Shown: positions 29,950-52,503 of the stretch, piece after piece | Numbering within the stretch: position 1 is the first letter of the stretch | Layout: the number at the start of each line of letters is the position of its first letter | Assembly (NCBI GenBank): GCA_020635435.1 | Contig: JACJZU010000002.1 | Span: forward strand, 136,771 to 200,770 | Reading direction: 5' to 3' | DNA: 64,000 bases | Source: Flavobacteriales bacterium | GTDB lineage: Bacteria; Bacteroidota; Bacteroidia; NS11-12g; UBA9320 | Translations under genes and position numbers: made by a program | The notes under the pieces: model-generated | What the model saw: only the letters and a program-made list of their open reading frames with translations | Told to the model about the DNA's origin: nothing | Database searches by the model: none

Positions 29950-32900
29950 ATGAGACTCAAATTTCTACGCTCCCTTCAGTTTTTCATTTTCAGTTTACTT
30001 TTAGCAGGCGGACTTCAGGTCAAGGCCCAGACAAGCACGCTGGTGTTCGACTATGATTTCAGCAGTTGTACGGCCTGTGGTGATTCGGTGATCACGACAT
30101 CGAACATTCGCGACAGTTTTGTCGATGCAACGGCTTCCAACAAGTTCGTCAGCTTTTTACAGGTTCGGGCTTATCTGTTCACCTGTACAACCGACTCGGT
30201 TGAATTGTACTTGAACGGGGTGAAGATGCAATCGTCGTACACGGTCTCGAAGTGTTTCTGTGGCGGTTGTGATTCTCTGGCCTGGAATATACTGGGCAAC
30301 AACTTGCAGGGGGTCTATAATTACGGAGGAAAGAACATTATAGAAATACGGTTAAAGAGCACCAGCACCATGTGGTTCGACCGCTTCAAGGTGATCCGGA
30401 CCTTATCAGACAGGTATAACTACGACGCGGGGGTTACTCGATTGGATACGCCCATGTTGAGGAGTTGTGCGGGTACTACACCGATACGGGTTGAGATCGC
30501 CAATTTCGGCAGAAGATCATTCAGCACGGTGGATGTGGAATGGACATGGAACGGCAGCAGTCAGACAGGGGTGACCTACAGCAGCAAATTAGACAGCGTT
30601 TCGAGTAGCGGGATAGCGCGAGCTTTGGTAACATTGGGGACCAAGACACTAAGTCCGGGTAAAATTGATACGCTGGTGGCGTGGACCGACGGTCCGGGAG
30701 GGCAGGTTGATTCTGCGGGCCATAACGATACTTTGGTGGCTTTGATCACGGTGGCGTTTTCAGATACCATAACCGTTGGGGGTACAAGTCCTGATTTCAC
30801 CTCCCTCTCGGCTGCGGTATCCGCCTTGCATCAATACGGGATCTGTGGGCCATTGGTCGTTTCCATCCGCCCCGGTACCTATACCGAGCAATTGGAGATC
30901 GGAACAATTCCCGGGGCCGACAGTATAAACCGCGTGACCTTTACCTCGAGCACAGGTGATTCTTCCGATGTGCTGATCAATTACTCGTCGAGTAGTTCTT
31001 CGATGAACTATACCATTCGATTGAACTATTCTTCAAATATTGATTTTCGCCATGTTACGATAGAGGCATTGGGTTCCTCGTACAGCACGGTTGTGAACCT
31101 GAACGGAGAATTGGATAATGTGGGATTTTACAGTTGCAGGTTCCTGGCAGCAACGGTTACGACCAGTTCCACGAGCCGAGCTCTCATTTACAGGTCTTAT
31201 GCCGTTTATAATGAAAATGGACAGGACTTGACATTCGACCGCTGTGTTTTTGCCGGAGGAAGTTATGGGGCGTATTTGTACAACGCTTATGGCAATTACT
31301 TCAACCGATGTCAATTTACGAACAATCAATTCCTCTCGCAGTATTATACAGGGTTATACATCTATTACCACCGCAATACGCTCGTAGAGAATAATTTCTT
31401 TTCATACTCGGGTACCACCGGTGCGTATGGAATGCGCCTGTACAATTCTACAAATGGCCTTTGGGTAGTGAACAATCGACTGATCGGAGGGTCGCCAAGT
31501 TATAACATTCATATTAATAGTCACTCCGGTACGATGAATCAGAGAGGACTCGTAGCGAACAATTTGTTATCGACCACTGCTGCTTCAAATACAAGTTATT
31601 ATGCGAATGTCAATCTGGAATACAATAGCTATCTGGATTTCGTCCACAACAATATTCAACGAAGTGAAGATGGTACAGAGCCGGCTCTTCAGGTCTATTA
31701 TGGAAGTAACATCCGTACGTACAATAATATTTTGAAATGTAGTGGCAACAGTCCGGCGTTAACGGTTTACAATGGGGGCTCGCCCAATATTGCTTACTCG
31801 GATCACAACTGTTACAGAACCATGGGTGTATTATTGGGATCCTGGGATGGAAGTGCCCTATCTACGTTGAACGACCTGCAGACTGCGAGTGGCATGGATT
31901 CGAATAGTGTTGATACGGATCCAAATTATGTTTCGTTGACCGATCTCAAACCATATAACGTGGATCTGGACGCGGCTGGTAAGGGCGATCCCCGGGTACC
32001 ATTGGACTTTGACGGTTTGCCACGGGATACCACCAACCCGGATATTGGTGCCATTGAGTTTGATCTGGTGAAGAATGATGCCGGAATTGTTGAGATCAAA
32101 CGGTTTGTTGCCGGATCGGGATGCTACGAAGTTGTGATGCGCAACTTTGGAAAAGATACCTTGAAAAGCGTGAGCATAGGCTGGTCTCTGAATGGTTCTT
32201 CCAAAACACCGGTGAGTTGGACAGGGACTTTGGCTAAAGGGGACACCACACATTTATGCCTGGATACAACTACATTTTCAACCACCCAGGCCTATAACCT
32301 GAAGGTTTGGACATCGTCGCCGAACTCGTCTACCGACTCTTTCCCTTTGAATGATACCTCATCGGCGCGATACTTTGCCGCCCTGTCGGGGGATTATACA
32401 CTTGGCGGAGGCTCCTCTGATTTTGTGAATTTCGACTCGGCTTTGGCCGCATTAGAACGCGGAGGAGTTATAGACTCTGCCCGATTCCTTGTTCAAAGCG
32501 GCACCTATACATCACAATTGGTTTTTGGAAGTATATATGGTGCGGATCATGAAGGGGCCGTTATTTTTCAGGGGGCTGCAGCAGACAGTACGGCAGCTGT
32601 ACTGCAGTTCGGGTCTACCAGTTCATCGACCAATTACGTGGTCAAGCTGGACATGGCGAGGGGGATCACATTCCGGCATATGACTTTGCACAATACGTCA
32701 GCCGGTTCTTACAAGCAAGTTGTTCAAACGAATAATTCTGTCCTTGATATAACCTTCGATCACTGCGTTCTGACCAATAACGACACCACATCGACGAGTT
32801 CCAGTGTGGAGCTTGTTGAAGGCTATGCCCCGAACATGAGAAATTTGAAATTTATCGGTAACGTGTTCCGCAATGGTTCGACCGGTCTGTATCTCGAAGG

Positions 32901-35900
32901 GGGCTATAATTCTTACGCAAGTGAAGTTGTGATTCACGGCAACACATTCGTGAATCAGAACAGAAGGGGTCTTATTCTGTATTATCAGGATGGGATAAGT
33001 GTGAGAAACAACACGATTCTTGGCATGCGAAATTCCATGACCTATGGACTCGAATTCTATGATTGGAGGGGACCAAGTTCTCTGATCGGGAATCAGGTTT
33101 ACATAACGGGAACCAATTTGTATTCAGGTATTTACGGTAGTTATTACTACGATGCATCGGATACGATGGTTGTTGCAAACAATTTTGTTTCGGTACAATC
33201 AAGTCAATCCTGTAATGGGATGCAGTTATACGACCTCAATCCGGGTCTGGTGGCCTATAATAATGTTTGGAATCGATCCACAGATTCGAGCAGTTCCGGT
33301 TCCGCGATCTTCTTCAGTTATGGTGACTTCTATGTTTACAATAACAACATGGTTCACACCGCAAATGGTTATGCGTACTATCTATCCAGCGAATACCGTT
33401 TTAAATCCAATTTCAACAATCTGTTCTCGAACAAGAGCAATCCGGTTTATTATGATGGGGTGAACTATTCTTCGATTGCAGCCTATCAATCCGGGGAGAA
33501 TAAAGATACCAATTCCGTAGCAGTAAATCCGCAATACACTTCTACCTCAGATCTACACGTCAGTTCTGTACTGCTGAATAAGAAAGGCAAGCCACTAAAT
33601 CTAGTTAATGTGGATATTGACGGTGAGCAACGCGATTCAATGAATCCGGATATTGGTGCTGACGAGTTCAGTCCGCCTGCCAAGGATGCAAGTGTGATCG
33701 CCTTCGCCAGTCCGGGAAGTGTGTTGATAGCAGATACCCTGCCTTATACCGTGGTAGTCCAAAACTTCGGATTGGATACCATCAATGAGGTAAGTGCAGC
33801 AGGTAGGATCAGCACCAGCCACTCTACGACGAACTTCAGTGTTACAAAATCGACTAAGACATTGGCTCCGGGCGACACCACCCATATTCGTCTGGGAACC
33901 TATGTATTCCATCAGGATTCCTCCTATTCTCTAACGGCCTGGAGTTCCAGTCCGGGAGGGGTGAGTGACCAGAAACCGTCGAATGATACCTTGAGTCAGG
34001 AAGATATCTATCCGGCAATGGCTGGTATTTATACGATAGGTGGAAGTAGTCCTGATTTCAGTTCTATTCGGGCAGCTGTTGCTGCGTTGAAACGGGCGGG
34101 TATATCGGATACGGTTACATTCAGGATTCGTTCCGGTACATATAACGAGCGCGTAGATCTCAGCCGCTTCAGGGGAACATTTGGCAGGAACAGCATCATT
34201 TTTGAATCGGAGTCGGGTGATTCCTCAACGGTTACCATTCAACATACGGCCACCCAAAGCGATTCGAACTGGGTAGTATATTTCCGGGGTACGGAACACG
34301 TAACTTTCCGCAAGTTGACGATCCGAAGTTCATCCACCGGCTCCTATGCCCGTGTTATTCAGATCGACAACAACTGTAAGGATATTTCGATTCACAATTG
34401 CTTTATTGAAGGACGCAATGTGAGCAGTACCTCACAGAACTATTCGCTCATCTATTCCGGAAACAATGCCGATGAAGGTATCTGGATCTTGAACAACAGA
34501 TTGAGAAATGGGAGTTATGGAGTTTACCTTTATGAGTATCCGAGTTCATCGCCCTATACACAGACGCTTGGGATACGAATAGAAAACAACGATATCAATT
34601 GTTACAGATACGGGATCTACGTTTATTACGCCGATTCATTACGCATCACTGGAAACAAGATCACATCGGATAACTATTCATCATTTTACGGAATTTATAT
34701 AGAGGATGCTGACAGTTCGCTAAATGTTTCGAACAATACGATCGTTCTGAACCGCGGTTATATGGGTATTTACATTTACTACGGCGGGCTTAATGCAACT
34801 TCACTTCAACCCATTAATAACAACTTTATAAGCATGTTAGACCCCACAAATTCAGGGATCTACGGTATTTACAGCTATAATGGTGGAAGTTTAGACATTT
34901 CTTATAACAGCATTTTCATTGCAAATACCAATAGCAACTACGGAATTGCGAATTATTATGGATCAAATTGCAGGATCTTGAATAACAATATCGAAGCGGG
35001 CTCGGGCAGGGCTCTCTATTACTATTACGGTTCCCAAAGCTCGGATTACAATAATTTACATAGCAGCGGGCCCTACTTAGGTTACAAGGATGGTACGGAC
35101 TATGCTGATCTCAGTGCGTGGGAATCCGGTACAATGCTGGATAGCAATTCAATTTCCGTAATGCCGCAATTCAAATCGAATACGGACCTTCACATGAAGG
35201 ATCTGAGGCTTAACGGGAAGGCCAAGCCTCTTGCTGAGGTTTTGACCGACATAGATGGTGAGATGCGCGATTCCATCACACCGGATATTGGAGCAGATGA
35301 GTATATACCGCCAAAACTGGACGCGGGTATTATTGATGTGATCACGCCGAAGATGCCCTTCCTGGCCGATACGCAGCAAGTGGTTGTGGTATTGGGGAAT
35401 TTTGGATCCGATACGCTGAAAACAGCGAATATCACCTGGCAGCTAAATGATAGTACCTATCCGGTGTATTCCTGGAGTGGCTCACTCGCATTGGGTGATA
35501 CGGCATGGGTAAAACTGGGAAGTCATGTTTTCGATCTGGACAGTGGATATTCCTTCAAATCGTGGACGAGTAATCCAAACAGTGGTACGGATGCTCTTGC
35601 GGAGAATGATACGGCGGAACTCAAAGATCAGTACCCCGCCCTGAGCGGTATCTACACTGTGGGCGGAGGGTCACCTGATTTTAACACGCTGGGCGATGTG
35701 CTCACGGCGTTGAGTCGGGGCGGAGTATATGATTCGGCCCGATTTGACATCCGATCCGGAACGTACCTGGAGCAACTGGAATTCAAGCGCTACATAGGTG
35801 CCAATAAGAAGCATGCGATCATATTCCAAAGTGAATTGAAGGACAGCTCGAAAGTGTTTCTGTCTGCTTCTTCCACGTCATCATCCAAGAATTACTCCGT

Positions 35901-38900
35901 ACTACTGGATAGCGCAAGCGGTATAACTTTCAGGCATTTAACGCTCACAACACCGGGAATAACTTATTCCAATGTGGTGCGAATTTATGGTGGAAGCACC
36001 GATATATGTTTTGAAAAGTGCCACATAACGGGATCGAATACGTCGAGTACCTCTGCTGACAGGGCTTTGGTCTACATCTATGCGGCTACCCGCAATGCGA
36101 AGATCCAGAATGTGGAATTCCGAAATTCCAACTTCAATTTCGGTGCTTACGGAATTTATGGTACCGGTTACCATTTATCCGGACAACGATCGGAGGATAT
36201 CCGATTCACGAATAACAATTTCTCGGATCAGTATTACTACAGTTTGTATCTCTACTACGTCGACCGTCCGGTGATCGAAATGAATCGTTTCGAGGGACGT
36301 GCGAGTATGAGCTCAAGCGGGACCGGTATTTATATTTACTACTGTGATAAATACCGGGTTACTTCCAACAGCATCAAAATGATACCTTATATGGGTATCC
36401 GGGCGGAGTATAGCTACGGATCTGTAGGCGACAGTACGCTATTGGCCAACAATATGGTGAGCATGAATGGTACGGGAACTTCATACGGACTCTATTTATA
36501 CGGTGCCAGCTATGCTTACATCCTGAATAACAACGTGCGATTGGTAAGTACAAGCACATCCTCCTACGTACTGTATTTGAACGGTTCTCCATACTACGCC
36601 TACAACAACAACTTCACTCATTTTGGAAATGGTTATGCGGCCTATTACAGTTCATACAGTTCAAGCAGCAGGATCGATCACAATAACTATTTCACCAATG
36701 GTAGCAACATCATCTACAGGGGATCTACCTATACCAGTTTTGCGAACTATCAATCGTCGACCGGTTTGGATGGGAATGGGCTGAACATCGATCCGGACTA
36801 TGTGAGTGCCACAGATCTGCACACCAGGGAAGCCAATCTGGATCGGGCAGGAAAAGCATTCCCACATCTTGTCCCATTTGACTTTGATGGAGAAGTACGT
36901 GACTCCGTAACACCGGATATAGGTGCGGATGAAATAAGCATTCCATCTGCGAACGATGCCGGTATAGTGGCCAGTACCGGGCCTATTGCCCCATTTGCGT
37001 CCGGCTCAAATGCTGTTTATGCGGTGATACGAAATTTTGGCTCGGACTCATTGAAAAGTGCGACGATCCATTGGTCGGTGAATGGCGGAACGGCAACAAC
37101 CTATTCCTGGACCGGCGGCCTTAAAACATACGAGTTCGATACGGTGAATCTCGGCAATTTCTCATTCTCTTCGGGCACGCATTATTCCATTCGCTTTTGG
37201 ACGAGCTCCCCGAACGGAGTGGCGGACACGATCAACTACAACGACACCTTCGATCGATATAACATGATCCCGGGTCTCATAGGAACCTATACGGTGGGAG
37301 GTTCTGCTCCGGATTTTGCCACCATAGCCGATGCGGTGACCGCTTTGAAAAACGCCGGAACATTGGGTAATGTGATCTTCAGTATCCGAGCCGGAACATA
37401 TAATGAAACGATCACACTGGAGCCTTACTCCACAACTTCACCCACATCAAGGGTAACCTTCCAATCTTCGACCGGAAATGCATCTGACGTGATCTGGAGG
37501 CCAAAGAATTACGGGGACGGAAAGATCGTATACATCAATGGAGCCGATCGATTGCGATTCAGGAATATCACTTTCCGACCACAGGCCGGATACACGACAT
37601 ATATCGTTGAGATGAACAATAGTTCATCGAATGTAGAATTCCGCAACAACGTATTCGATATGAACTCCTATACGTATTACGGAACGCATTACGGTATTCG
37701 CTCCAGCTCGGATAACGATGATAGCCTGGTCGTTAGCAACAACACGTTCAAGAATGGTTATATGGGTGTATATCTATATGGTATCAACAGTTCGAATCCG
37801 GAGAAATTTACGCGAATCGACAGTAACACCTTTACATCCCAGTATTCCTACGCTATTGCGGCATACTACCAGAATGGCATTCGGATTCGCAGCAATCAGA
37901 TCAGCAGCAGTGTTACAGGAGTAGAACCTATCTATCTCTACTATTCATCGGGCTCGTGTGAATTGGCGTACAATAAGATATCGCGTACGTATAATGGAAG
38001 TTCCGGAGTGGACATCTTATATCACCAGGGGGGTGTGAGTATGCCATTCCTTGTGCATAACAACTTCATTACGATCAATGCAGGTGGTGGAACCTACACG
38101 GCATTCTATACTTCGAATTCTTCCTATTTGAACCTGTATTTCAACAGCATTCACGTGTACAATGGGGGGTCTTCCTCTACACCTTTCGCTGCCTACAATA
38201 CCAGCAGCCTCGATATCAGGAATAACATTTTTGCGAATTCGGGGAATGGATATAGTTTCTACATGAGCAATTCCACCCTGAGTCAGTCCAATTACAATAA
38301 TTTCTACACGGCCGGAACTACGCTCGCAGGGCTCGGAGCAACCTATTATACGAGTTTGAGCAGCTTCAGGTCGGCAACGGGTAAGGATGCCCAGTCCCTT
38401 TCAGTGGATCCTTATTTCTTCTCAGATACCGATCTGCATACGGGAATATCTTCGCTCGACAGTGCAGGTACACCGATCACGGGAATTACCGACGACATTG
38501 ACCGGGAAAGCAGGAATACTACGAAGCCGGACATTGGGGCCGATGAGTTCAACAGTTTACCTCGAAACCTTGGTGTGCAGAATGTGCTGGTGCCTCTGGA
38601 TGGGTGTGATATGGATACCATTCAAGTAAAGGTCACCTTATTCAACTATGGCTCGCAGGCTCAGGTCAATTTCCCAATTCGCTATCAGCTCAATGGCGGT
38701 TTGATCGACAGTTTTATAGTAACTGATACCATCAAACGCGGGGCAAGTCTTGTCGCTGAATTCGATTCCATGGAGATTTTGAGCACGGGCATGCAATACA
38801 ACCTGAAGGTATGGACAGATCTGAATAATGAGCAGTTCCGGGCTAATGACACGGTTGCGATGGTCTTCAACAATTATCAGAAACCGGATTCCGTGAAAAG

Positions 38901-41900
38901 TATGGTTCCTGCGAATGGAACTGTGAATGTGAGTTTCCCACTTTCGCTTTCCTGGTTACCTTCTACAGGAGCTACTCATTACGACATCTACTTATGGGAT
39001 AGTACTGGCAGTAAACCCGGTAGCCCTAATTTCAGCAACCTCACACAGATCAGTTATCAGATCAATTCTGGACTTACCTATGGAGCTACCTATTACTGGC
39101 AGATCGTTGCGAAGAATAGTGTTTGTGCAACGGAAGGGGTCATTCAGAAATTCAAAATGAAATACCTACCTGATCTGGTCGTAACATCGGTTGTTACTCC
39201 ATCCAGTGCTTTCTCCAGTACAAACATCACGATTAACTGGACAGTAAAGAATCAAGGATTGGGTAATTCGGGGGGGACCTGGTTCGACCGGCTTTACCTT
39301 TCGGACGACGCACTTTACGGATCCGACATATTCTTGGGTGGTTTTGTGAATCCAAGCGCACCGAATGCAGGAGGTACTTACAGTCAGACCGCAACAGTTA
39401 CATTGCCTAATGGAATTTCGGGAAGCTACCGCGTATTTGTTCTTACGGATGTTTACGGCAACCTGACGGAGGGTAACGAAAACAATAACATCGCTAGGGA
39501 CTCCGGTACGGCGATGAACGTTTCGCTCACTCCTCCGCCGGATCTGATCGTGAACTCGGTGATCGCGCCGACAAATGGTTTCTCCGGTCAGCCAGTTTAC
39601 ATAACATACACCGTTAAAAACGACGGAACCGGACCCACACGTTCCGGCCTGTGGTATGATCGCATTTATATAACCAGCGACAGCACGCTGAATTCTTCGT
39701 TAACACTTCTCAAAACGATACAGCATGTTGGTAATCTCTTAGTTGACAGCACCTACTTCAATGCAAGTGTGCCAATCATCCTACCTAATAACATCAAGGG
39801 CAAGCGTTTCATAATTGTACATACCGACCAGACGAATCAGGAATATGAATATGCGTCGGAGGGTAACAATACGAACTATGATTCCATGGAGGTCATTTTA
39901 ACCCCTCCACCGGATTTGGTTGTTCGGGATGTGGTTGTTCCAACGTCGGCCAGCAACCGTGAATACATCACTGTGAACTTCCATACCATGAACGATGGGG
40001 GAACGAGTACCGGTAAAGCATATTATGATGCATTCTACCTCTCCCAGAGCCCGGTATTGAATACCAGTACCGCTTATAATTTGGGCAGTATCCGTCAGCC
40101 TACCACAGGCCCCGGAGATACGGCAACAAATCGCAGTGTCACTTTGCGCATCCCATCGAACATCAATGGTAAATACTATCTCTTTGTTGTAACGGATGCC
40201 AATGGTTATATCGAAGAATTGAGCGGAGAATCGAACAACGTTTCGAAGGGTGATAGTATCATCATCAACAGCCCTGATCTTGTGGTTCGGCATGTTGATG
40301 TGGATGCCCGCGACACTTCAGGTCATTTGACTCGAATCGAATATTGGGTCAAGAACCTCGGACCCGGTGCAGACTTAGGTACAACGAGATCGGACAGCTT
40401 CTACATACATACGGGTAATACATGGAGCAGTAGTGCAAGGCGCCTTAGTAGGTATACCTATACGACAACCATTCAGCCCGGTGATAGTCATTTCGTGAGC
40501 ACAACCGTGCGCATACCGGACGGAACCGAAGGGAAGCGTTACTTCTTTGTCTCTACAGATGCACAGCTTGCGATCTTCGAAAATGGCAAGGACAACAACA
40601 ACCGGGGCGTAAGCGACAGCATGACGGTTGATCTGGCTCCATATCCGGATCTGATCCCCCGTTTGGATACGTTCCCGGATTCTACCGAAGCAGGTAACCT
40701 GATCAAACTGCAATACAACGTGCGTAACGATGGGGATACCACAGCTATGCCTCTGTGGCGTGATGCGGTTTACCTCTCACAGGATTCCGTTTGGAGTAGT
40801 AATGATCTTCTTCTGGGACCATTTATTCAGAATTCACAATTGCTGAAAGGAGCTTCATACGATGTAACCCTTTATCCGACTCTTCCTTCCAGTCTCACAA
40901 TGGGTACGTATTATTTTATAGTACGAACCGATTATCAGGATAATGTCTATGAGCATGGATCCGACAATCAGAACAACATTTTCGTTTCAAAAGGTATCTT
41001 CATCGACGGGTATCCACCAATTGACCTGGTTGTAAGTTGTCCGGACGTTGCGGATACCATGTGGAGTGGACTGACCTATGTGGTTAATTACACGGTAACG
41101 AATAATGGACAGGCTTCGACTGCGGTAGGTTTCTGGACGGATTATGTGTACTTGAGTACGGATTCCGTTTATAGCAGCAACGACGAAAAGATCGGAGGAT
41201 ATATTCGCTCCGGTAACCTCGCAAAAGGTGCTTCCTACAGTGTCAGTTTGCCGGTTAAGATACCCAATGGACGAAGCGGTAATTTCTACCTAATAGTTCG
41301 CACCGATACGGCCAACCGCAATGTGGATGTTGACTTAAGTTCGAACAGCAAAGCTGCTTGTAAAGCCGGAGCTGCTCATAGGAAAGTGCTACGGCTTACA
41401 CCTCCACCGGATCTGAAGATCACATCCTGGACAGTTCCCGGAACCGGAACGAGTGGCCAGAACATCAACATCAAATACACCGTTAAGAACGATGGATCAG
41501 GACCTACTACGGCCGGTGCCTGGGTAGATAAGATCTACCTGTCTACAGACTATACACTGGACAATTCAGACTATTCACTTGGTTCGCATACACATGCCGG
41601 TGACCTTACTGCCGGAGGTTCCTATTCGGTGGATAAGGATTTCCTGATACCATTGGATAAAACGGGGAATTTCATCGTGATCATCAAAACGGATGTTGCG
41701 AATGTTGTGTACGAGCATACGCAGGAAGGAAATAATACTGCTGCATCCATTTCTACATTCAGTCAGCCGCCACCTGCGGATCTGATCGTATCTCAGGTAT
41801 TGGCTCCAAGCACGGTATTGAGTGGTGGAACGATCAATGTGCAGTGGAAGGTGAAGAACCAAGGCACGAATCCGGCTCAAGGGTATATTTATGACAATGT

Positions 41901-43089
41901 ATATTTATCGAAAGACTTGATCGCGGATGCTTCGGATCTGTTGTTAGGCTCGGAAGGAGTAAGTATAAACCTCGGACAAAATTCTGAGATTTCGAGATCG
42001 ATGAATTACAACATAAGTGGTGTCCCGATGGGCAATTACTATGTCTTGGTAACCACAGACGTGCGCAACACTATCTACGAAAGCAACGATACGAACAATA
42101 CGGAAAATGCATTCAACCAGCTCTACGTCACCGTACCCTTGCTTAGCATAGGCACTGAATATTTGGATACGATGAGTGACAATGAGAAGATGTACTATCG
42201 CTTCATCGTACCCGATTCATTGAAAGGAGAATCATTGTTGATTACTTTAAAGGGTGATAGTGCGAATGGCAACAACGAAATGTACTTGCGATACATCGAT
42301 TTAGCCACAGCGGCCAATTTTGATCAGAAGCACCGTGATCCATTCCAAGGCAATCAAGAGATTATTTTGCCGGAGGCCGATACAGGAACCTATTATTTGC
42401 ATATTACCGGAAGTGTAGATCCCGGGAATAGCCAAAACCTCCGAATCTTAGTGGAAGTATTGCCATTCGAAATACGCAGGATAACACCAAATTCTGGTGG
42501 TAACGCAGGTGAGATCACAATCTTGGTTGAGGGATCTAAATTTGATTCGACCACCAAGTTCTATCTTGAAGTCCCAGGTAGAGTATTCATACCTGAGGAT
42601 ACTGGGGAAATCGTTACGACTGAAGGTTTGTTGACGAGTAGAGGTTTTGATCTTATCGACCCAACGAAGGCATATGTGACATACGACCTGAGTGGTTGGG
42701 ATACCGGTTATTATGACTTGGTGGCCTTGAAAGAAAAGGAGAATGACATTCTCGAAAAGGGATTCCTGATTGAAGAAGGCATCGGGGAGGATCTGCAAGT
42801 AAACATCATTAGGCCCGGGAACACGAGGTCGGGGGTTGTGATATCCATTACGGTTCAATTCACAAATAAGGGGAACAACGATTTAGTTGGCAGAGCGATC
42901 GAATTAGTAAGTACCCAGGGTGCTCCGATTTCACTTACTCCGGGAGGGATTTCTCAAGGTAATTCCACTCTACAGATAGTTGTAGAAGGGACAGAAGGCC
43001 CACCTGGGCGATTAGCGGCAGGAGCAAGCGGGTCTGTCGTTGTTTATGTGCAATCGAGTGCTGCTTTGGGAATAATGGTTAACAAATAG
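29950..43089 (+). CDS. Giant (4379 aa) secreted multidomain protein: 5 x (CARDB-like + parallel beta-helix) modules, FN3-like domain, 8 x CARDB-type domains, PPC-like and IPT/TIG-like domains; no T9SS sorting domain seen
   Basis: A single uninterrupted 13.1-kb ORF with signal peptide MRLKFLRSLQFFIFSLLLAGGLQVKAQ. Module ends are marked by PDIGA(I/D)E(F/Y/I) at about nt 32038, 33646, 35281, 36913 and 38527. CARDB-type domain starts are marked by P(P/Y/I)DL(I/V/K)(V/I/P). The domain names are my reading of sequence patterns, not HMM hits. Confidence 0.85.
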   Translation: MRLKFLRSLQFFIFSLLLAGGLQVKAQTSTLVFDYDFSSCTACGDSVITTSNIRDSFVDATASNKFVSFLQVRAYLFTCTTDSVELYLNGVKMQSSYTVSKCFCGGCDSLAWNILGNNLQGVYNYGGKNIIEIRLKSTSTMWFDRFKVIRTLSDRYNYDAGVTRLDTPMLRSCAGTTPIRVEIANFGRRSFSTVDVEWTWNGSSQTGVTYSSKLDSVSSSGIARALVTLGTKTLSPGKIDTLVAWTDGPGGQVDSAGHNDTLVALITVAFSDTITVGGTSPDFTSLSAAVSALHQYGICGPLVVSIRPGTYTEQLEIGTIPGADSINRVTFTSSTGDSSDVLINYSSSSSSMNYTIRLNYSSNIDFRHVTIEALGSSYSTVVNLNGELDNVGFYSCRFLAATVTTSSTSRALIYRSYAVYNENGQDLTFDRCVFAGGSYGAYLYNAYGNYFNRCQFTNNQFLSQYYTGLYIYYHRNTLVENNFFSYSGTTGAYGMRLYNSTNGLWVVNNRLIGGSPSYNIHINSHSGTMNQRGLVANNLLSTTAASNTSYYANVNLEYNSYLDFVHNNIQRSEDGTEPALQVYYGSNIRTYNNILKCSGNSPALTVYNGGSPNIAYSDHNCYRTMGVLLGSWDGSALSTLNDLQTASGMDSNSVDTDPNYVSLTDLKPYNVDLDAAGKGDPRVPLDFDGLPRDTTNPDIGAIEFDLVKNDAGIVEIKRFVAGSGCYEVVMRNFGKDTLKSVSIGWSLNGSSKTPVSWTGTLAKGDTTHLCLDTTTFSTTQAYNLKVWTSSPNSSTDSFPLNDTSSARYFAALSGDYTLGGGSSDFVNFDSALAALERGGVIDSARFLVQSGTYTSQLVFGSIYGADHEGAVIFQGAAADSTAAVLQFGSTSSSTNYVVKLDMARGITFRHMTLHNTSAGSYKQVVQTNNSVLDITFDHCVLTNNDTTSTSSSVELVEGYAPNMRNLKFIGNVFRNGSTGLYLEGGYNSYASEVVIHGNTFVNQNRRGLILYYQDGISVRNNTILGMRNSMTYGLEFYDWRGPSSLIGNQVYITGTNLYSGIYGSYYYDASDTMVVANNFVSVQSSQSCNGMQLYDLNPGLVAYNNVWNRSTDSSSSGSAIFFSYGDFYVYNNNMVHTANGYAYYLSSEYRFKSNFNNLFSNKSNPVYYDGVNYSSIAAYQSGENKDTNSVAVNPQYTSTSDLHVSSVLLNKKGKPLNLVNVDIDGEQRDSMNPDIGADEFSPPAKDASVIAFASPGSVLIADTLPYTVVVQNFGLDTINEVSAAGRISTSHSTTNFSVTKSTKTLAPGDTTHIRLGTYVFHQDSSYSLTAWSSSPGGVSDQKPSNDTLSQEDIYPAMAGIYTIGGSSPDFSSIRAAVAALKRAGISDTVTFRIRSGTYNERVDLSRFRGTFGRNSIIFESESGDSSTVTIQHTATQSDSNWVVYFRGTEHVTFRKLTIRSSSTGSYARVIQIDNNCKDISIHNCFIEGRNVSSTSQNYSLIYSGNNADEGIWILNNRLRNGSYGVYLYEYPSSSPYTQTLGIRIENNDINCYRYGIYVYYADSLRITGNKITSDNYSSFYGIYIEDADSSLNVSNNTIVLNRGYMGIYIYYGGLNATSLQPINNNFISMLDPTNSGIYGIYSYNGGSLDISYNSIFIANTNSNYGIANYYGSNCRILNNNIEAGSGRALYYYYGSQSSDYNNLHSSGPYLGYKDGTDYADLSAWESGTMLDSNSISVMPQFKSNTDLHMKDLRLNGKAKPLAEVLTDIDGEMRDSITPDIGADEYIPPKLDAGIIDVITPKMPFLADTQQVVVVLGNFGSDTLKTANITWQLNDSTYPVYSWSGSLALGDTAWVKLGSHVFDLDSGYSFKSWTSNPNSGTDALAENDTAELKDQYPALSGIYTVGGGSPDFNTLGDVLTALSRGGVYDSARFDIRSGTYLEQLEFKRYIGANKKHAIIFQSELKDSSKVFLSASSTSSSKNYSVLLDSASGITFRHLTLTTPGITYSNVVRIYGGSTDICFEKCHITGSNTSSTSADRALVYIYAATRNAKIQNVEFRNSNFNFGAYGIYGTGYHLSGQRSEDIRFTNNNFSDQYYYSLYLYYVDRPVIEMNRFEGRASMSSSGTGIYIYYCDKYRVTSNSIKMIPYMGIRAEYSYGSVGDSTLLANNMVSMNGTGTSYGLYLYGASYAYILNNNVRLVSTSTSSYVLYLNGSPYYAYNNNFTHFGNGYAAYYSSYSSSSRIDHNNYFTNGSNIIYRGSTYTSFANYQSSTGLDGNGLNIDPDYVSATDLHTREANLDRAGKAFPHLVPFDFDGEVRDSVTPDIGADEISIPSANDAGIVASTGPIAPFASGSNAVYAVIRNFGSDSLKSATIHWSVNGGTATTYSWTGGLKTYEFDTVNLGNFSFSSGTHYSIRFWTSSPNGVADTINYNDTFDRYNMIPGLIGTYTVGGSAPDFATIADAVTALKNAGTLGNVIFSIRAGTYNETITLEPYSTTSPTSRVTFQSSTGNASDVIWRPKNYGDGKIVYINGADRLRFRNITFRPQAGYTTYIVEMNNSSSNVEFRNNVFDMNSYTYYGTHYGIRSSSDNDDSLVVSNNTFKNGYMGVYLYGINSSNPEKFTRIDSNTFTSQYSYAIAAYYQNGIRIRSNQISSSVTGVEPIYLYYSSGSCELAYNKISRTYNGSSGVDILYHQGGVSMPFLVHNNFITINAGGGTYTAFYTSNSSYLNLYFNSIHVYNGGSSSTPFAAYNTSSLDIRNNIFANSGNGYSFYMSNSTLSQSNYNNFYTAGTTLAGLGATYYTSLSSFRSATGKDAQSLSVDPYFFSDTDLHTGISSLDSAGTPITGITDDIDRESRNTTKPDIGADEFNSLPRNLGVQNVLVPLDGCDMDTIQVKVTLFNYGSQAQVNFPIRYQLNGGLIDSFIVTDTIKRGASLVAEFDSMEILSTGMQYNLKVWTDLNNEQFRANDTVAMVFNNYQKPDSVKSMVPANGTVNVSFPLSLSWLPSTGATHYDIYLWDSTGSKPGSPNFSNLTQISYQINSGLTYGATYYWQIVAKNSVCATEGVIQKFKMKYLPDLVVTSVVTPSSAFSSTNITINWTVKNQGLGNSGGTWFDRLYLSDDALYGSDIFLGGFVNPSAPNAGGTYSQTATVTLPNGISGSYRVFVLTDVYGNLTEGNENNNIARDSGTAMNVSLTPPPDLIVNSVIAPTNGFSGQPVYITYTVKNDGTGPTRSGLWYDRIYITSDSTLNSSLTLLKTIQHVGNLLVDSTYFNASVPIILPNNIKGKRFIIVHTDQTNQEYEYASEGNNTNYDSMEVILTPPPDLVVRDVVVPTSASNREYITVNFHTMNDGGTSTGKAYYDAFYLSQSPVLNTSTAYNLGSIRQPTTGPGDTATNRSVTLRIPSNINGKYYLFVVTDANGYIEELSGESNNVSKGDSIIINSPDLVVRHVDVDARDTSGHLTRIEYWVKNLGPGADLGTTRSDSFYIHTGNTWSSSARRLSRYTYTTTIQPGDSHFVSTTVRIPDGTEGKRYFFVSTDAQLAIFENGKDNNNRGVSDSMTVDLAPYPDLIPRLDTFPDSTEAGNLIKLQYNVRNDGDTTAMPLWRDAVYLSQDSVWSSNDLLLGPFIQNSQLLKGASYDVTLYPTLPSSLTMGTYYFIVRTDYQDNVYEHGSDNQNNIFVSKGIFIDGYPPIDLVVSCPDVADTMWSGLTYVVNYTVTNNGQASTAVGFWTDYVYLSTDSVYSSNDEKIGGYIRSGNLAKGASYSVSLPVKIPNGRSGNFYLIVRTDTANRNVDVDLSSNSKAACKAGAAHRKVLRLTPPPDLKITSWTVPGTGTSGQNINIKYTVKNDGSGPTTAGAWVDKIYLSTDYTLDNSDYSLGSHTHAGDLTAGGSYSVDKDFLIPLDKTGNFIVIIKTDVANVVYEHTQEGNNTAASISTFSQPPPADLIVSQVLAPSTVLSGGTINVQWKVKNQGTNPAQGYIYDNVYLSKDLIADASDLLLGSEGVSINLGQNSEISRSMNYNISGVPMGNYYVLVTTDVRNTIYESNDTNNTENAFNQLYVTVPLLSIGTEYLDTMSDNEKMYYRFIVPDSLKGESLLITLKGDSANGNNEMYLRYIDLATAANFDQKHRDPFQGNQEIILPEADTGTYYLHITGSVDPGNSQNLRILVEVLPFEIRRITPNSGGNAGEITILVEGSKFDSTTKFYLEVPGRVFIPEDTGEIVTTEGLLTSRGFDLIDPTKAYVTYDLSGWDTGYYDLVALKEKENDILEKGFLIEEGIGEDLQVNIIRPGNTRSGVVISITVQFTNKGNNDLVGRAIELVSTQGAPISLTPGGISQGNSTLQIVVEGTEGPPGRLAAGASGSVVVYVQSSAALGIMVNK
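30421..38560 (+). repeat. Five tandem ~1.6-kb (~540 aa) coding modules (Ig/CARDB-like domain + right-handed beta-helix + DIGA-E cap)
   Basis: The spacing between PDIGA motifs is 1608, 1635, 1632 and 1614 nt. Landmarks recur in each module (NDAGI..., Y(T/S)(L/V/I)GG(G/S)SPDF, GTY.E.(L/V), FRH(L/M/V)T(L/I)). Confidence 0.8.
39169..42135 (+). repeat. Eight tandem ~123-aa CARDB-type Ig-like domain repeats (coding)
   Basis: PDL-type domain starts lie near 39169, 39535, 39904, 40272, 40640, 41015, 41401 and 41768. The pattern Y(L/I)S.D..(L/W/Y) recurs within the repeats. Confidence 0.75.
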
Positions 43090-43097
43090 GAGAAGTC

Positions 43098-46000
43098 ATG
43101 AATAATCTGAGAAATACAATACGAACAATTCTGTTTTGCGCTCCGCTTTATTTCGGAATGACAGCCAGTTCGACGGCGCAAACAGATAGTGAAATCCGGG
43201 TATTGGAAATGGAATACAATAACTCGGGGATATTATATTATGTGAAACCACATAGTAGTTGGTCAAATACAAGTATAGAATCATTGCCGGCAATCTTGTC
43301 CAAGATTTATAAGGTGCCTGATGGTTGGGGTTTGCGTGAAGTTGAACGGCAAGTTGTGGAGTCGGGTACTGTGTTGAAGGTGAATCAAACCTACAAAGGT
43401 GTAGATGTGGACGGAGGGGATATCATTTTGCGCTATGGCAACGATGGTAAAATCAGCGATATTCTCGGTACACCGCGTCACATTAACATGGATCCTGTTC
43501 CGGATACAATTGGGGCTGCACGTGCGATCGATGTTGCGTTGACACATTTGGGTATCGATACGCTTGCCCTGGACGTAAATCCGGCTACCGGGGAACCATT
43601 TTATCCGGAGATCCGATTGTGTTATGCACCCTACAATTCAGATCTGCTTTCAGCTTTTGTACTCTGTTATGAAGTCGAGGTCTTGGTGTCTAGCCCAGCG
43701 CGTTACTTTTATTATATCGATGCGCGAAATGGGGAAGTGGCAAGCGTGCAGAATGCCTTGATGCATGATAAGATCAAAGGAACAAGTTGGTATTCGGGAT
43801 CGGTAGAATTTGAGGCGATCAAAAGAGGGAATTTCATAACCGGATATTATTACGAAAGCCATGATGCCGTTCGTAAAATCCGTTGTTTCGATCATGGATA
43901 TAATAAAGCTGTTATAGATGATGATTGGACTATGTGTAAACGTCCCGGCGGGCCGCTGCCTAAGCCAATTTTTTGGGATAATTCCACAGATTGGACGGCT
44001 ACAGATAAAAAAGGGGTTGTTGATGTTATGTGGGGGATTGGTAAGACTTATGATTACTTCAAAGAGAAGCATTACCGCAATTCATTTGACAACAGGGGTA
44101 CTTATATTGACAACCGCTTGTACTACGATGTACTGGAGAGACATTGGGATGCAGCTTGTCCAATTGATACCTTTAAGATAGACTCAACATACTGCAACGC
44201 TTATTGGAACGGCAAGCTGTTAACATATGGGAATGGAAATGGAGTTGCTGCCGGTGTTTACGGAAGTATAAATACCTGCGGTCATGAATTTTCCCACGGA
44301 GTTGTTGAATTTACTGCCGGGTTAAAATACCAGGGAGAGTCTGGTGCATTAAACGAGTCGTTTGCAGATATGTTCGGTACCGCTATCGAGTTTTATGCCA
44401 AGCAGTCGATTGGTTCTAATGGAAACTGGAAATATGGTGAAGAACATACTACTCCCGCAAATCCGAACGATTGTTTGCGTGATATGTCGGATCCACATGC
44501 AACGGGAGATCCGGACACGTATAAAGTAGATGCACGTTGGGTCAACACGGCCAACGTGAGTAAGGCAAATGATTATGGGGGTGTACATACCAACTCAGGC
44601 GTAGGCAATTACTGGTTTTACCTTTTGAGCGAGGGAAGTGGAGGTAAAAAGACGAATGAAGCCGGTGATGAATATGATTTCAGCGGTATTGGATTAACCA
44701 AGGCTGAGAAAATTGCTTATCGTGCATTGAGTGCTTATATGGGTAACTGGTCGGATTATGCGCAGGCGAGAAAGGCCACACTGCTCGCAGCAGAAGATTA
44801 TTACGGTAAGAAATCGAGTGAATACAAAGCCGTGTGTAATGCTTGGTATGCTGTAAATGTGGGCGAGAAATGCTGCGATACCATGGAGTTGTCGTTCACA
44901 ATCGAAGAGCCGACTTGTGCGGAGTCCGAGGATGGCAAGATCAACCTAACGGTTAAGAAAGCAAATGGTCCACTGATATATAGTTGGTTTAAGAACGACA
45001 CCAACTCAGTAGTTCTCTCAACGAGCCAAAATATCGCAGGCCTGAAAGCTGACCGTTACATTGTTATCGTGAAGGATACTGCGGCAAAATGTGAAATCGT
45101 TGGCGATACAACACTTGAAGGCAAAACTGTAGAAGTTACAGTAACCGGGGGAGGCAGTTATTCCGGACCCTGCGATCGTACCTTTGAGATCAGTCTTACA
45201 TCCTCTGCATCTGGAGGGGAGGCTCCTTATACGTATAATTGGGCTCCAAATGGGGTACTAAAACTAACCCTCGGCGGTAGTAGTAGTTCATTCAATAATT
45301 ATACAGCAGTGATAACCGATAAGAACGGTTGTAAGGGCAAGAAAACGACTTCCGTTCTCTATATCCCTATACGATGTTCTTATGACCCAAATGATATAAT
45401 TGGACCACCGGCTTATGGGGAGGAAGGTTGGGTTGCCAAGTCGGCTACACTACCTTACAAGATCCGATTTGAGAATGATCCCAAATTTGCCACGGGTCCG
45501 GCTCAACGAGTAGAGATAATCCACAAATTAGATTCTAACGTGAATCTCAACTCTTTCCGCCTGAGCGATTTTGGATTCTATACCTTCAATTTTCAGGTAC
45601 CTTCAAATAGCATCAATTATTCGAACCGATTGGATATCCGCGATTCCTTTGGTATCTATCTCGATGTTCGGGCAGGTGTGAATTCAAGTACCAGAGAGGC
45701 GTTTTGGATCTTTGAAAGTATTGATCCGAATACAGGTTTACCGCCTTTGGATGGTAGCAAGGGATTCCTTAGGGTAAACGATACCACGAATCATCAAGGT
45801 GAAGGTTATGTGAATTATACGATTCGTCCGGCATCGCATACCGTTACAGGTGATAGCATAAGGGCGATTGCCAATATCACATTCGACGACAATCCGGATA
45901 TCAATACGCCCAAAATCTTCAACCTGATTGATGCCGTTCCGCCTAGTAGCAAAATAGATAGTGTTGCTTCGGTTTTGGATAGCAATAATGTGGTGATGAC

Positions 46001-52406: not shown

Positions 52407-52437
52407 GTTGTTTATTGCACAAATTGTCAAAAACCAG

Positions 52438-52466
52438 AAAGGCGCTCTGAAAAGGGCGCCTTTTTT
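52438..52466 (+). terminator. Intrinsic terminator after the 22-kb two-gene unit
   Basis: AAAGGCGC-(10-nt loop)-GCGCCTTT followed by TTT. Confidence 0.8.
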
Positions 52467-52503
52467 ATGGAATAACCAGGTGTTTTTAGTTAATTGCCCT
52501 CAG

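Follow-up and report, generated by a model that had tools for sequence, protein, structure and literature searches.

Introduction

Prediction of T9SS cargo now rests almost entirely on the type A and type B C-terminal sorting domains (CTDs). Among described giants, SprB has a type B CTD and SprF as its partner, and the Aureispira grappling hook protein GhpA, a chain of 5898 residues with Ig-like repeats, carries a CTD and is followed downstream by genes for the PorP/PorE homologues GhpB and GhpC (bioRxiv 10.1101/2024.01.29.577165). That preprint refers to Lauber 2018 for the SprA pore, which at 70 Å transports folded substrates. The TANFOR polymorphic toxins of Bacteroidetes are likewise large proteins with a Sec signal, whose neighbourhoods are rich in T9SS substrates and which lack a CTD; their exit through the T9SS has been hypothesised, not shown (PMC7073777). 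For Flavobacterium johnsoniae, the latter paper refers to Kulkarni et al. 2017 for T9SS substrates with C-termini that are neither type A nor type B.

A giant protein without a CTD in a T9SS organism

A preliminary description of the window, by which we mean the whole 64,000-nt stretch of DNA analysed here, taken from a Flavobacteriales MAG, pointed to a Sec-exported mega-protein without a recognisable CTD in a T9SS organism. Our analysis supports this: genes for PorV, PorU, PorP/SprF and a GldK-like protein lie 10-16 kb upstream of the gene encoding the giant, and two genes for type A cargo are found nearby, one encoding its immediate neighbour (hereafter the partner, ending at 52406) and the other an S8 protease (57893-62545). 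The neighbours ending at 52406 and 62545 had been presented as type A and type B cargo; both carry the type A domain PF18962, and neither is type B.

13425-14663, reverse strand: porV (PorV, 1.4e-62)
14726-18601, reverse strand: porU/C25 (Peptidase_C25, 1.8e-106)
18674-19717, forward strand: porP/sprF (PorP_SprF, 1.2e-61), the sole PorP/SprF gene in the window, ~10 kb upstream of the giant
19755-21212, forward strand: gldK/porK-like gene with an FGE-sulfatase fold (FGE-sulfatase, 1.6e-38)

Translation of 29950-43089 on the forward strand bears out the claim of one uninterrupted 13.1-kb ORF, with a single reading frame that runs from ATG to TAG and encodes 4379 residues. The domain layout proposed for this protein was largely reproduced by HMM scans together with repeat delimitation.

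29950-30027, forward strand: Sec type I signal peptide, aa 1-26 (translation)
30028-30411, forward strand: Cys-rich N-terminal domain, aa 27-154, CTACGD...CFCGGCD, with six of 29 Cys at residues 40-107
30412-38556, forward strand: five tandem ~540-aa modules, aa 155-705, 706-1241, 1242-1786, 1787-2330 and 2331-2869
38557-39159, forward strand: sixth copy of the lead beta-sandwich, aa 2870-2975 (alignment of six lead domains), and a weak FN3-like domain, aa 2976-3070
39160-42111, forward strand: stalk of eight CARDB domains, aa 3071-4054 (PF07705; repeats delimited by jackhmmer)
42121-42477, forward strand: first cassette domain, a PPC-like beta-sandwich, aa 4058-4176 (PPC match and AF2 model)
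42478-42789, forward strand: second cassette domain, an IPT/TIG-like beta-sandwich, aa 4177-4280 (TIG in relatives and AF2 model)
42790-43086, forward strand: third cassette domain, a terminal ~100-aa beta-sandwich and family signature, aa 4281-4379 (profile search and AF2)
43087-43097, forward strand: TAG stop and 8-nt spacer

The signal peptide, MRLKFLRSLQFFIFSLLLAGGLQVKA followed by QT, is of Sec type I, as had been claimed, with cleavage between VKA and Q. Because no Cys lies near this site (the first is residue 40), the giant has no lipobox, in agreement with the preliminary description, and falls outside the bacterial lipoproteins, which are defined by a Cys at the cleavage site. The Cys-rich domain of ~130 residues was found where expected; it has no match in Pfam or NCBIfam, and is common to the closest orthologues (P0012, P0014, P0015, P0017 and P0055; VFDYD..C..CGD). 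The first 217 aa contain no Pfam/NCBIfam family, and a scan of the whole protein found no TANFOR domain.

Each of the five ~540-aa modules, the boundaries of which fall at aa 155, 706, 1242, 1787, 2331 and 2870, starts with a lead domain, a beta-sandwich of ~110 aa, continues as a right-handed beta-helix and closes with a DIGA-E motif, and pairwise identity among the five is 28-40%. The giant is a member of the right-handed parallel beta-helix proteins, with matches to Beta_helix (PF13229) over six stretches (E = 2.6e-31, 108.8 bits against a gathering cut-off of 25.9) and to NosD (PF05048; 66 bits against a cut-off of 23.6), and its NCBI name follows this content. A weak match to choice_anch_Q spans aa 678-704. 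Homologues of the first beta-helix module are 28-33% identical to it, and seven of the eight carry PF18962. The extra CARDB-like and FN3-like domains proposed to follow the five modules hold up in part: a sixth copy of the lead domain is indeed present, but its likeness to CARDB is loose (hhalign probability 2.4%), and the FN3-like match exists but is weak (fn3, E = 0.005). The eight CARDB-type domains beyond them were found as claimed, and the giant is thus also a CARDB-domain protein (PF07705, E = 5.9e-75, 248 bits against the Pfam cut-off of 22.7).

A conserved cassette at the C-terminus

The last ~320 aa of the giant, encoded at 42121-43086 directly ahead of the stop, form a conserved cassette made up of the PPC-like domain, the IPT-like domain and the terminal ~100-aa beta-sandwich. 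The AF2 model of this 325-aa cassette contains three beta-sandwiches (pLDDT 88.4, with a pTM of 0.80 for the three domains together), and pLDDT reaches 91 for the terminal domain. In the giant itself the match to PPC (PF04151) is weak and below the cut-off (E = 0.045, 15 bits) and its tail has no match to TIG (PF01833); across 21 family members, PPC matches nine (best E = 6.6e-6) and TIG two (best E = 1.8e-4). Foldseek yielded only generic beta-sandwich matches for the terminal domain and only generic Ig-like matches for the three-domain model, and a sequence search of the PDB with the terminal domain gave no match.

A profile of the terminal domain recovers a family of at least 575 clusters (50% identity) at E <= 1e-3, or 264 at E <= 1e-10; the metagenome scan took a 7-sequence alignment as its query. 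Nearly all members have all three cassette domains, and the terminal domain lies at most 11 residues from the C-terminus in 147 of the 152 members sampled. This exact C-terminal position is also what a sorting signal in its own right would show. Cassette-bearing proteins are signal-peptide proteins of 1.4-5.8 kaa: by a crude test, 70 of 86 full-length members start with a signal peptide, and only three have a lipobox-like motif. The giant has the same arrangement: it starts with a signal peptide, has a CARDB stalk and ends in the cassette. MAGs are the source of every named member, and no cultured host of the family was identified; because the genome scan used narrow search patterns, and yielded one locus only, the taxonomic spread of the family is poorly sampled.

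The cassette is not a known sorting domain

Type A cargo is recognised by TIGR04183/PF18962 in the C-terminal ~70-100 aa, and type B cargo by TIGR04131/PF13585 (CHU_C) together with a downstream PorP/SprF-like gene. The giant, said to have neither a type A tail nor a type B CTD, indeed has neither by HMM, profile-profile and fold comparison. Por_Secre_tail/TIGR04183 and CHU_C/TIGR04131 were not found in scans of the whole protein or of its last 100, 200 and 400 aa (E <= 10), a type A stretch with an E-value of 0.35 falling inside a CARDB repeat, away from the C-terminus, and HMM scans of the tail gave no significant CTD match there. PF18962 matches none of 21 diverse cassettes, and a local type A CTD HMM that finds 11 partners gives no C-terminal match in 152 family representatives. 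Profile-profile alignment of the terminal domain with type A CTDs gave an hhalign probability of 0.2%, and T9SS CTD structures are absent from its top 50 Foldseek PDB matches. The gene downstream encodes an M4 peptidase-SprB-CTD protein, not a PorP-like one.

The giant ends in ...SSAALGIMVNK, as described, and the stop follows. Since the next ATG is out of frame (+2), read-through cannot fuse the ORFs of the giant and its partner, and such a fusion was ruled out, the next ORF also having its own signal peptide. Two relatives (P0001 and P0002) terminate at the same place, collinear orthologues (4360-5473 aa, 34-51% identity) end with the cassette, and the ORF ends 0-15 aa past the terminal domain in 24 loci. 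In related loci the spacer between giant and next gene varies between 0 and 56 nt with no fixed frame, and the stop position is kept in all. The giant occurs in identical form in two sources, and a separate Logan assembly has a near-identical copy, also of 4379 aa. We checked the possibility, raised in the preliminary description, that the stop at 43087-43089 is an assembly error, and found the same end in more than 20 metagenomic loci.

The partner protein and its conserved module

The gene 8 nt downstream encodes a protein in which a signal peptide, an FTP/PepSY propeptide, an M4 thermolysin-type peptidase, SprB repeats, a conserved module, ~24 further SprB repeats and a type A CTD follow one another.

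43098-52406, forward strand: partner gene, 3102 aa (NCBI 'M4 family metallopeptidase', MCB9245789.1)
43776-44861, forward strand: M4 catalytic and helical domains, aa 227-588, HExxH at aa 396 (Peptidase_M4, 2e-21; Peptidase_M4_C, 2.1e-49)
45330-46307, forward strand: conserved ~320-aa module, aa 745-1070 (hmmsearch, 550 bits; alignment)
52143-52403, forward strand: type A T9SS C-terminal sorting domain, aa 3016-3102 (PF18962, E = 4.9e-16; TIGR04183, E = 2.5e-14)

The M4 peptidase is thus the payload that lies between cassette and module. The module contains an invariant DPN-I-GP motif (DPNDIIGP), a partial DUF7619 (CLIPPER-like Ig) domain and an FN3-like last third, which matches chitinase A1 in a PDB sequence search, the only match for the module. 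It scores 350-550 bits by hmmsearch in every related locus with enough downstream sequence, and we propose that it is the docking site for the cassette. In CnaA-like/CLIPPER isopeptide domains (DUF7619), a Lys-Asp/Glu-Asn triad forms an isopeptide bond (PMC12617251); the module covers only positions ~81-133 of the 133-position DUF7619 model. Covalent isopeptide coupling, suggested by the isopeptide clan of DUF7619, was rejected because neither the module alignment nor the cassette alignments contain an invariant or near-invariant Lys.

Cassette and module are paired across loci

The preliminary description suggested that the giant may depend on the protein encoded 8 nt downstream and called for a search of other genomes for the gene pair. 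Such a search found the pair in MAGs of Flavobacteriales and Bacteroidales, as well as in numerous loci from metagenomes, examples being a Bacteroidales MAG, L001, L004 and L028. In all 21 distinct loci with enough sequence, the module lies 2.1-7.1 kb downstream of the cassette on the same strand, as it also lies downstream and on the same strand at the giant's locus, usually in a protein that ends in a type A CTD. Reciprocal sampling from module homologues found a CARDB giant upstream in three of three cases, with a full cassette in two and a partial one in L033. Pairwise identities of cassette and module are correlated (r = 0.81), and none of 2000 permutations reaches this value. Neighbouring genes that are simply inherited together would also show a correlation of this kind.

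Between cassette and module, the family loci encode an enzyme or toxin, and the payload changes (M4 and M23 peptidases, a lipase, RHS toxins, one of them with Ntox37, and TSP_3 sets) while the frame around it is constant. The M4 peptidase was considered as the conserved partner and rejected, because what comes first downstream differs between loci (RHS, a 340-aa protein, ~400-aa proteins); it is the module, further on, that is conserved. A PorP/SprF-like partner among the small downstream proteins was also rejected, as these have no Pfam or NCBIfam match. Minimal partners, of 440-520 aa, consist of signal peptide, module and CTD. Rarely, as in P0094 and P0153, cassette, lipase and module are joined in one chain, in the order of the separate genes. 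Such fusions seem to belong to hosts possibly devoid of a T9SS; P0094 has no signal peptide and is flanked by NB-ARC/WD40 genes. A DUF6531-RHS toxin is encoded after the giant in sister loci, one of which has a small ORF downstream of it, a possible immunity gene. The RHS toxin has no CTD either and, like the giant, must be exported. Because some partners have no recognisable type A CTD (P0166/L032 and P0168, both with a different ~100-aa end domain, and L033/P0179, on a contig of 62% GC), the link to a CTD is frequent, not universal.

A proposed two-chain fibre and its alternatives

What is observed, then, is the absence of a CTD, a conserved terminal cassette, its synteny with the module, the co-variation of the two, fusions in the same order, and T9SS genes. 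Our preferred reading, which we hold with moderate confidence, is that a surface fibre is split over several chains, of which the giant is the distal one, in a widespread cassette/module system. The two chains probably form one fibre, because the cassette is always encoded just upstream of the partner's module. Chain 1 would consist of variable head domains, a CARDB stalk and the cassette of PPC-like, IPT-like and terminal beta-sandwich domains, followed by the gene boundary; chain 2 would consist of a payload enzyme or toxin, the DPNDIIGP/DUF7619/FN3 module, a stalk of SprB or PKD repeats and, usually, a type A CTD. Here these would be the 4379-aa giant and the 3102-aa partner, respectively.

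We suggest that both chains reach the periplasm by their own Sec signal peptides, where the C-terminal cassette of chain 1 would bind the module of chain 2. The T9SS would then recognise the type A CTD of chain 2, and PorU would remove it and link chain 2 to the surface. Chain 1 would either be carried out with chain 2, as a piggyback passenger, or be captured by it, and would project outward, with the M4 peptidase at the junction of the two. We expect such a fibre to measure some 150-250 nm and to carry its beta-helix heads at the far end. The suggested dependence of the giant on its downstream neighbour is thus backed by the conserved pair, the co-occurrence of cassette and module and the fusions, from which we infer physical contact between the two elements and co-export through the T9SS. 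The giant is also predicted to lie at the cell surface, and the system may have a role in adhesion, predation or antagonism.

More tentatively, cassette and module may be the two halves of a dedicated coupling device, by which CTD-less proteins hitchhike through the T9SS on a CTD-bearing adaptor and stay assembled on the surface. Giant adhesin fibres could be such hitchhikers, as could the Sec-dependent RHS toxins, M23 peptidases and lipases of sister loci. No paper was found that describes piggyback transport by the T9SS, which is not an established T9SS mechanism, and our literature search yielded no description of the cassette/module domain pair, of T9SS hitchhiking or of T9SS-RHS systems.

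It is also conceivable, if rather doubtful, that the T9SS has a further class of sorting signal, a 'type C' CTD, formed by the terminal beta-sandwich alone or by the entire cassette and read directly by the translocon, PorV or a PorP-like protein; the module protein would then be functionally linked, for example as a later anchor, and not needed for outer-membrane crossing. The near-constant position at the C-terminus is that of CTDs, the family members checked have Sec signal peptides and no other route, and some partners offer no type A CTD. C-termini that are neither type A nor type B are, moreover, known among the T9SS substrates of F. johnsoniae, ChiA being an example. A ~100-aa beta-sandwich is also the same general fold class as CTDs (PMC4804311), but the comparisons described above gave no sequence or profile similarity to type A CTDs and no T9SS CTD structure among the top Foldseek matches. 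A general signal would, moreover, be expected on many unrelated cargoes scattered in the genome, whereas here the same two domains and a CARDB stalk invariably come ahead of the domain and a module gene comes after it, one-to-one; in the fusion proteins the domain is internal.

It is unlikely that the giant has no dedicated route, staying periplasmic or leaving by outer-membrane vesicles or lysis, with its adjacency to the partner reflecting only co-regulation of genes related in function. Although the giant has a Sec signal and no recognised outer-membrane targeting feature, a 4379-aa chain of beta-helices and CARDB domains resembles a fibrillar adhesin or an enzyme in design, its beta-helix modules have homologues that are T9SS cargo (seven of eight with PF18962), and co-regulation leaves unexplained both the fusions and the strict domain pairing across differing payloads.

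Very improbable is a protease-specific pair, in which the giant would be a substrate, inhibitor or chaperone of the M4 peptidase and supply a PPC-like domain in trans. PPC-like domains normally follow secreted peptidases, and here one lies directly ahead of an M4 gene without a PPC of its own, a pairing with M4 that is kept in the closest relatives; yet the same cassette is paired elsewhere with RHS toxins, M23 peptidases, lipases and TSP_3 proteins, and what stays constant in the partner is the module and not the protease.

Finally, the lack of a CTD might be artefactual, if a recent pseudogenising stop or an error in assembly or sequencing had truncated the protein or split the gene. The MAG origin of the sequence and the mere 8 nt to the next gene would fit this idea, but it is effectively refuted: the stop is conserved across relatives (more than 20 independent loci and 147 of 152 cluster representatives have it at one and the same alignment position), the giant was recovered repeatedly, and the downstream gene is out of frame and has its own conserved signal peptide.

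Discussion

The cassette family includes some of the biggest proteins of Bacteroidota, which are CTD-less and yet always tied to a partner that usually has a CTD. On our preferred reading the cassette/module system is widespread, so far undescribed and found mainly in Bacteroidota. If the pairing mediates co-export or docking, it would provide a new rule for T9SS substrate prediction, explain the T9SS dependence of CTD-less proteins, RHS toxins included, and offer a natural two-part display system of a ~320-aa tag and a ~320-aa receptor. If the two elements are a coupling device, this would be the first piggyback secretion by the T9SS, and the family, with at least 575 clusters, would be a new and widespread class of Bacteroidota weapons that combine an adhesin with a payload in modular form. 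Payloads such as M4 and M23 peptidases, lipase and RHS/Ntox37 point to predation or interbacterial antagonism, and, if that role holds, the T9SS would be directly involved in bacterial conflict. Two of the conserved domains, both uncharacterised, are also candidates for new family definitions.

Like canonical type A cargo such as RgpB, the giant is a multi-domain, beta-rich protein with a Sec signal in a PorV/PorU/PorP organism, and homologues of its beta-helix modules are type A cargo; it differs in that its C-terminus is a three-domain cassette instead of a type A CTD. With SprB and GhpA it shares a size of 4-6 kaa, functional heads at the distal end and an extended stalk built of Ig-like repeats, and it too may plausibly act in contact with prey or surfaces. 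SprB and GhpA require, or are proposed to require, a partner from the same operon for export and anchoring, as we propose here. Both, however, carry their own CTD and have a PorP/SprF-type outer-membrane barrel as partner, whereas the giant has no CTD and is paired with a soluble-type cargo that has a DPNDIIGP/DUF7619/FN3 module and a type A CTD of its own. Like the TANFOR proteins, the giant's family has toxin payloads, here RHS and Ntox37 in sister loci; the giant, however, lacks a TANFOR domain, and its conserved element lies at the C-terminus, not the N-terminus, and comes with a specific, conserved partner module.

In Tat hitchhiker export, signal-less subunits cross the membrane bound to a signal-bearing partner, which makes it an analogue for a folded giant without a sorting signal that would cross bound to a partner with one; Tat hitchhiking takes place at the inner membrane, whereas the step suggested by the genes here would be at the outer membrane. 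In Rhs/YD-shell systems a large accessory or delivery protein is encoded upstream, as in the A-B-C logic of Tc toxins and in WapA-type Sec-dependent Rhs proteins, and the sister loci share this order of a large adhesin-like protein followed by RHS. The giant's own locus, by contrast, has an M4 peptidase in place of RHS and no similarity to TcA, VgrG or PAAR, and in the cassette/module system every component has a Sec signal and a T9SS CTD is found on the anchor.

A giant secreted protein without a sorting domain

The organism from which the window derives has a T9SS, since porV, porU, porP/sprF and a GldK-like gene lie in the window, together with two type A tails nearby, one on each of the large neighbours of the giant protein.

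Features of the window (plus strand, +; minus strand, -)
13425-14663 (-): porV, core T9SS gene cluster
14726-18601 (-): porU/Peptidase_C25, core T9SS gene cluster
18674-19717 (+): porP/sprF, core T9SS gene cluster
19755-21212 (+): gldK/porK-like gene, FGE-sulfatase fold, core T9SS gene cluster
29950-43089 (+): giant, 4379 aa
42121-43086: cassette, the last ~320 aa of the giant
43098-52406 (+): partner, with type A tail
45330-46307: module, partner aa 745-1070, ~320 aa, invariable among loci
53208-55301: M48-like peptidase, 697 aa, middle ORF of a trio
57893-62545: S8 subtilase, 1550 aa; type A tail; PPC, Ig and PKD domains weak

The tail of the S8 protease had been described as type B, and its Pfam match (Por_Secre_tail PF18962, E = 6.5e-11) identifies it as type A. 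Right behind the partner gene are three closely spaced ORFs (52369-56022); this trio is not kept in related loci, and Pfam has no match for its flanking members, of 279 aa and 247 aa.

The giant (MCB9245788.1, named 'right-handed parallel beta-helix repeat-containing protein' by NCBI, from a Flavobacteriales MAG) is a single unbroken reading frame from ATG to TAG. The N-terminal signal peptide is of Sec type I, with cleavage between MRLKFLRSLQFFIFSLLLAGGLQVKA and QT; a lipobox is absent, the earliest Cys being residue 40. Pfam returned CARDB (E = 5.9e-75), Beta_helix (2.6e-31) and NosD (4.3e-18) with no other notable match, and choice_anch_Q, below threshold, was the sole match in NCBIfam. Self-comparison recovered the five tandem ~540-aa modules (aa 155-2869, mutual identity 28-40%) and the eight CARDB domains (aa 3071-4054) listed in the preliminary description. 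Each ~540-aa module is headed by a ~110-aa lead domain, of which a sixth copy occupies aa 2870-2975. The proposed extra CARDB-like and FN3-like domains fared less well, as the lead domain bears only a loose likeness to CARDB (hhalign probability 2.4%) and the FN3-like match is weak (E = 0.005). The PPC-like and IPT-like domains score below threshold in the giant itself, and it is relatives that support both (PPC in 9 of 21 family members, best E = 6.6e-6; TIG in 2 of 21).

Neither a type A (PF18962/TIGR04183) nor a type B (PF13585/TIGR04131) C-terminal sorting domain (CTD) was found in the whole giant, and searches of its terminal 100, 200 and 400 aa with a limit of E <= 10 were likewise negative. 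A profile built from 52 sequences of the terminal domain shows no relationship to 15 aligned type A CTDs (hhalign probability 0.2%). The terminal 111 aa were modelled with AF2 (pLDDT 91), and in the PDB this model resembled only beta-sandwiches of a generic kind, namely CBMs, transglutaminase barrels, complement MG domains and a CARDB domain (E > 0.004 throughout); the top 50 matches include no T9SS CTD. The stop codon is genuine, because two fragments (41-49% identity) end at the equivalent point, eight collinear orthologues (4360-5473 aa, 34-51% identity) carry the same terminal domain at their end, the ORF ends 0-15 residues past this domain in 24 related loci, and the next ORF lies out of frame, with a conserved signal peptide of its own; an artefactual stop is thereby ruled out. 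The original observation of a giant lacking a CTD in a T9SS organism is therefore confirmed; two of the outcomes named beforehand as refuting it, a CTD match and an assembly error at the stop, were tested for and did not occur.

The terminal cassette defines a large protein family

The terminal domain has no model in Pfam or NCBIfam. Searching 1.84 billion representative proteins with a 112-column profile yielded 575 clusters with a cut-off of E <= 1e-3, of which 264 also pass E <= 1e-10 and 16 pass E <= 1e-30. The domain lies no more than 11 residues from the C-terminus in 147 of 152 proteins examined, among which nearly all members of judgeable length carry the complete trio of PPC-like, IPT-like and terminal domains. 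The AF2 model of the three domains (pLDDT 88, pTM 0.80) suggests that the cassette is a fixed unit and not beads on a string. Full-length members span 1.06-5.8 kaa (median ~2.8 kaa), mostly with type I signal peptides and very rarely with lipoboxes, and have highly varied N-terminal regions (beta-helix, Laminin_G, TIG/FG-GAP, P_proprotein) followed by a CARDB stalk. Named members are MAG proteins labelled 'hypothetical' or 'CARDB domain-containing', and the family is a large, unannotated, modular system that extends beyond one odd gene. The 90%-identity cluster of one related protein, P0032, has 18 members of 122 to 2845 aa, several on one contig, which are either paralogous giants with a near-identical part in common or fragmented gene calls.

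A conserved module is encoded downstream of the cassette

Read from its N-terminus, the partner (3102 aa) has a signal peptide, then an FTP/PepSY propeptide and an M4 peptidase; these are followed by SprB repeats in 24 stretches, a partial match to DUF7619 and, last, a type A CTD. The NCBI entry (MCB9245789.1, 3036 aa) probably starts too far downstream, since the signal peptide read from the ATG at 43098 is conserved in orthologues at four related loci (L001, L004, L006, L007).

The giant-partner pair recurs in four further places (L001, L004, L028 and L003, a Bacteroidales MAG with 33% cassette identity), as the check for conservation in other genomes had sought. A metagenome scan and contig look-ups added ~25 cassette loci, in every one of which a same-strand ORF begins 0-56 nt past the giant. 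The identity of this first gene varies between loci, but the module is constant: in 21/21 distinct loci with enough downstream sequence, a module HMM scored 350-550 bits at a site 2.1-7.1 kb beyond the cassette and on its strand. Near its start the module has a D-P-N-x-I-x-G-P motif; it also shows a partial match to DUF7619 (CLIPPER-like Ig), and its last third is FN3-like. In the reciprocal search, homologues of the module frequently proved to be minimal, at 440-520 aa, with a signal peptide, the module, in some cases TIG, and a type A CTD; a CARDB giant lay upstream in all three sampled contexts, with the cassette in two and a partial cassette in the third (L033). Pairwise identities of cassette and module across 19 loci correlate at r = 0.81, a value reached by 0 of 2000 permutations, as expected for interacting partners but also for any co-inherited neighbouring genes.

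The motif itself (45384-45407, partner aa 763-770) is invariant in the module alignment; it lies ~10 residues past the signal peptide in split systems and directly behind the RHS core in L018, and might serve for processing or for metal binding. Locus L033 (62% GC) encodes a module protein without CTD (10001-11512), its partial cassette lies inside an ORF and its upstream gene calls overlap. Two readings fit: a divergent non-T9SS variant, or a frameshift in the locus. The DUF7619 clan contains isopeptide-forming Ig domains (PMC12617251); neither the cassette nor the module alignment has a conserved Lys, and covalent isopeptide coupling of the two is therefore not supported.

Payloads and single-chain fusions

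Between cassette and module lies a payload, an enzyme or toxin, that differs between loci.

Payload variants and the loci that carry them
M4 peptidase, fused to module protein: window, L003, L004, L006-L008, L023, L028
M23 peptidase, fused to module protein, behind a separate 340-aa protein: L009, L017
DUF6531-RHS toxin, separate gene: L022, L027, L030, L032, L034
RHS protein fused to module: L018
~400-aa protein and TSP_3-repeat protein: L013, L016, L029

Among the RHS toxins, Ntox37 is present in one, and a 139-aa ORF follows one of the toxin genes. Two proteins that belong to other lineages unite cassette, PF00151 lipase and module in one chain: P0094 (L035 5608-18609), where CARDB domains precede the cassette (aa 2093-2390) and the module occupies aa 2977-3259, and P0153 (L036 8001-11969). 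Because the domain order of these fusions is the gene order of the split systems, a Rosetta-stone argument suggests that cassette and module are parts of one assembly. A signal peptide is absent from P0094, which has Calx-beta/SdrD_B/S8 domains and adjoins an NB-ARC/WD40 gene; for these reasons it, like L033 with its GC content, possibly lies outside Bacteroidota.

Proposed mechanism and alternatives

Giant and partner each have a Sec signal peptide, and of the two chains the partner alone has a CTD, of type A. Cassette and module are always encoded together, co-vary and are occasionally fused. We propose a split surface fibre in which the giant forms the distal chain and the cassette would bind the module. 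The complex would assemble in the periplasm and use the partner's CTD to leave via the T9SS; alternatively, an already exported partner would capture the giant. PorU would remove the partner's CTD and attach the partner to the surface, as with other type A cargo (PMC8545088, PMC4804311). The product would be one long fibre made of the partner's SprB stalk, an M4-bearing junction, the CARDB stalk and five beta-helix heads, and the nature of the payloads suggests that adhesion is coupled with degrading or killing target cells. The earlier surmise that the giant may depend on the protein encoded 8 nt downstream thus gains support, at the level of sequence, from the conserved pairing, the module in 21/21 loci, the co-variation and the fusions.

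The strongest competitor, though an unlikely one, is that the terminal domain or cassette is a cryptic new class of CTD, as might be read from its strict C-terminal position and from some partners having no recognisable type A CTD; a general sorting signal is, however, hard to square with one-to-one cassette-module pairing, a constant three-domain context and an internal terminal domain in the fusions. Two minimal module proteins, P0166 (L032 10001-11401) and P0168, end in another conserved ~100-aa tail (...VDWVLVELR...GxYxVxVKHRNHLG...), which is not a type A CTD and has no Pfam or NCBIfam match. We consider it improbable that the giant is periplasmic, or released by vesicles or lysis, with merely co-regulated neighbours. 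A protease-specific accessory role is contradicted by the non-protease payloads and deserves little credence, and given the conserved end point there is almost no chance that the missing CTD is an artefact.

Comparison with known systems

Our literature search found no description of the cassette, of its pairing with the module or of piggyback T9SS transport. The giant has the defining features of neither type A cargo, type B cargo, lipoproteins nor TANFOR toxins. The last are nonetheless a precedent: they are Sec proteins lacking a CTD, their neighbourhoods are T9SS-rich, and export by the T9SS has been hypothesised for them (PMC7073777). The giant most resembles very large T9SS filaments that depend on a cognate partner from their operon (SprB/SprF; GhpA/GhpB/C, bioRxiv 10.1101/2024.01.29.577165), but SprB and GhpA have their own CTD and PorP-type partners, whereas the giant has no CTD. 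Cassette and module are two uncharacterised conserved elements within an overall type that is already known, the T9SS-associated surface proteins.
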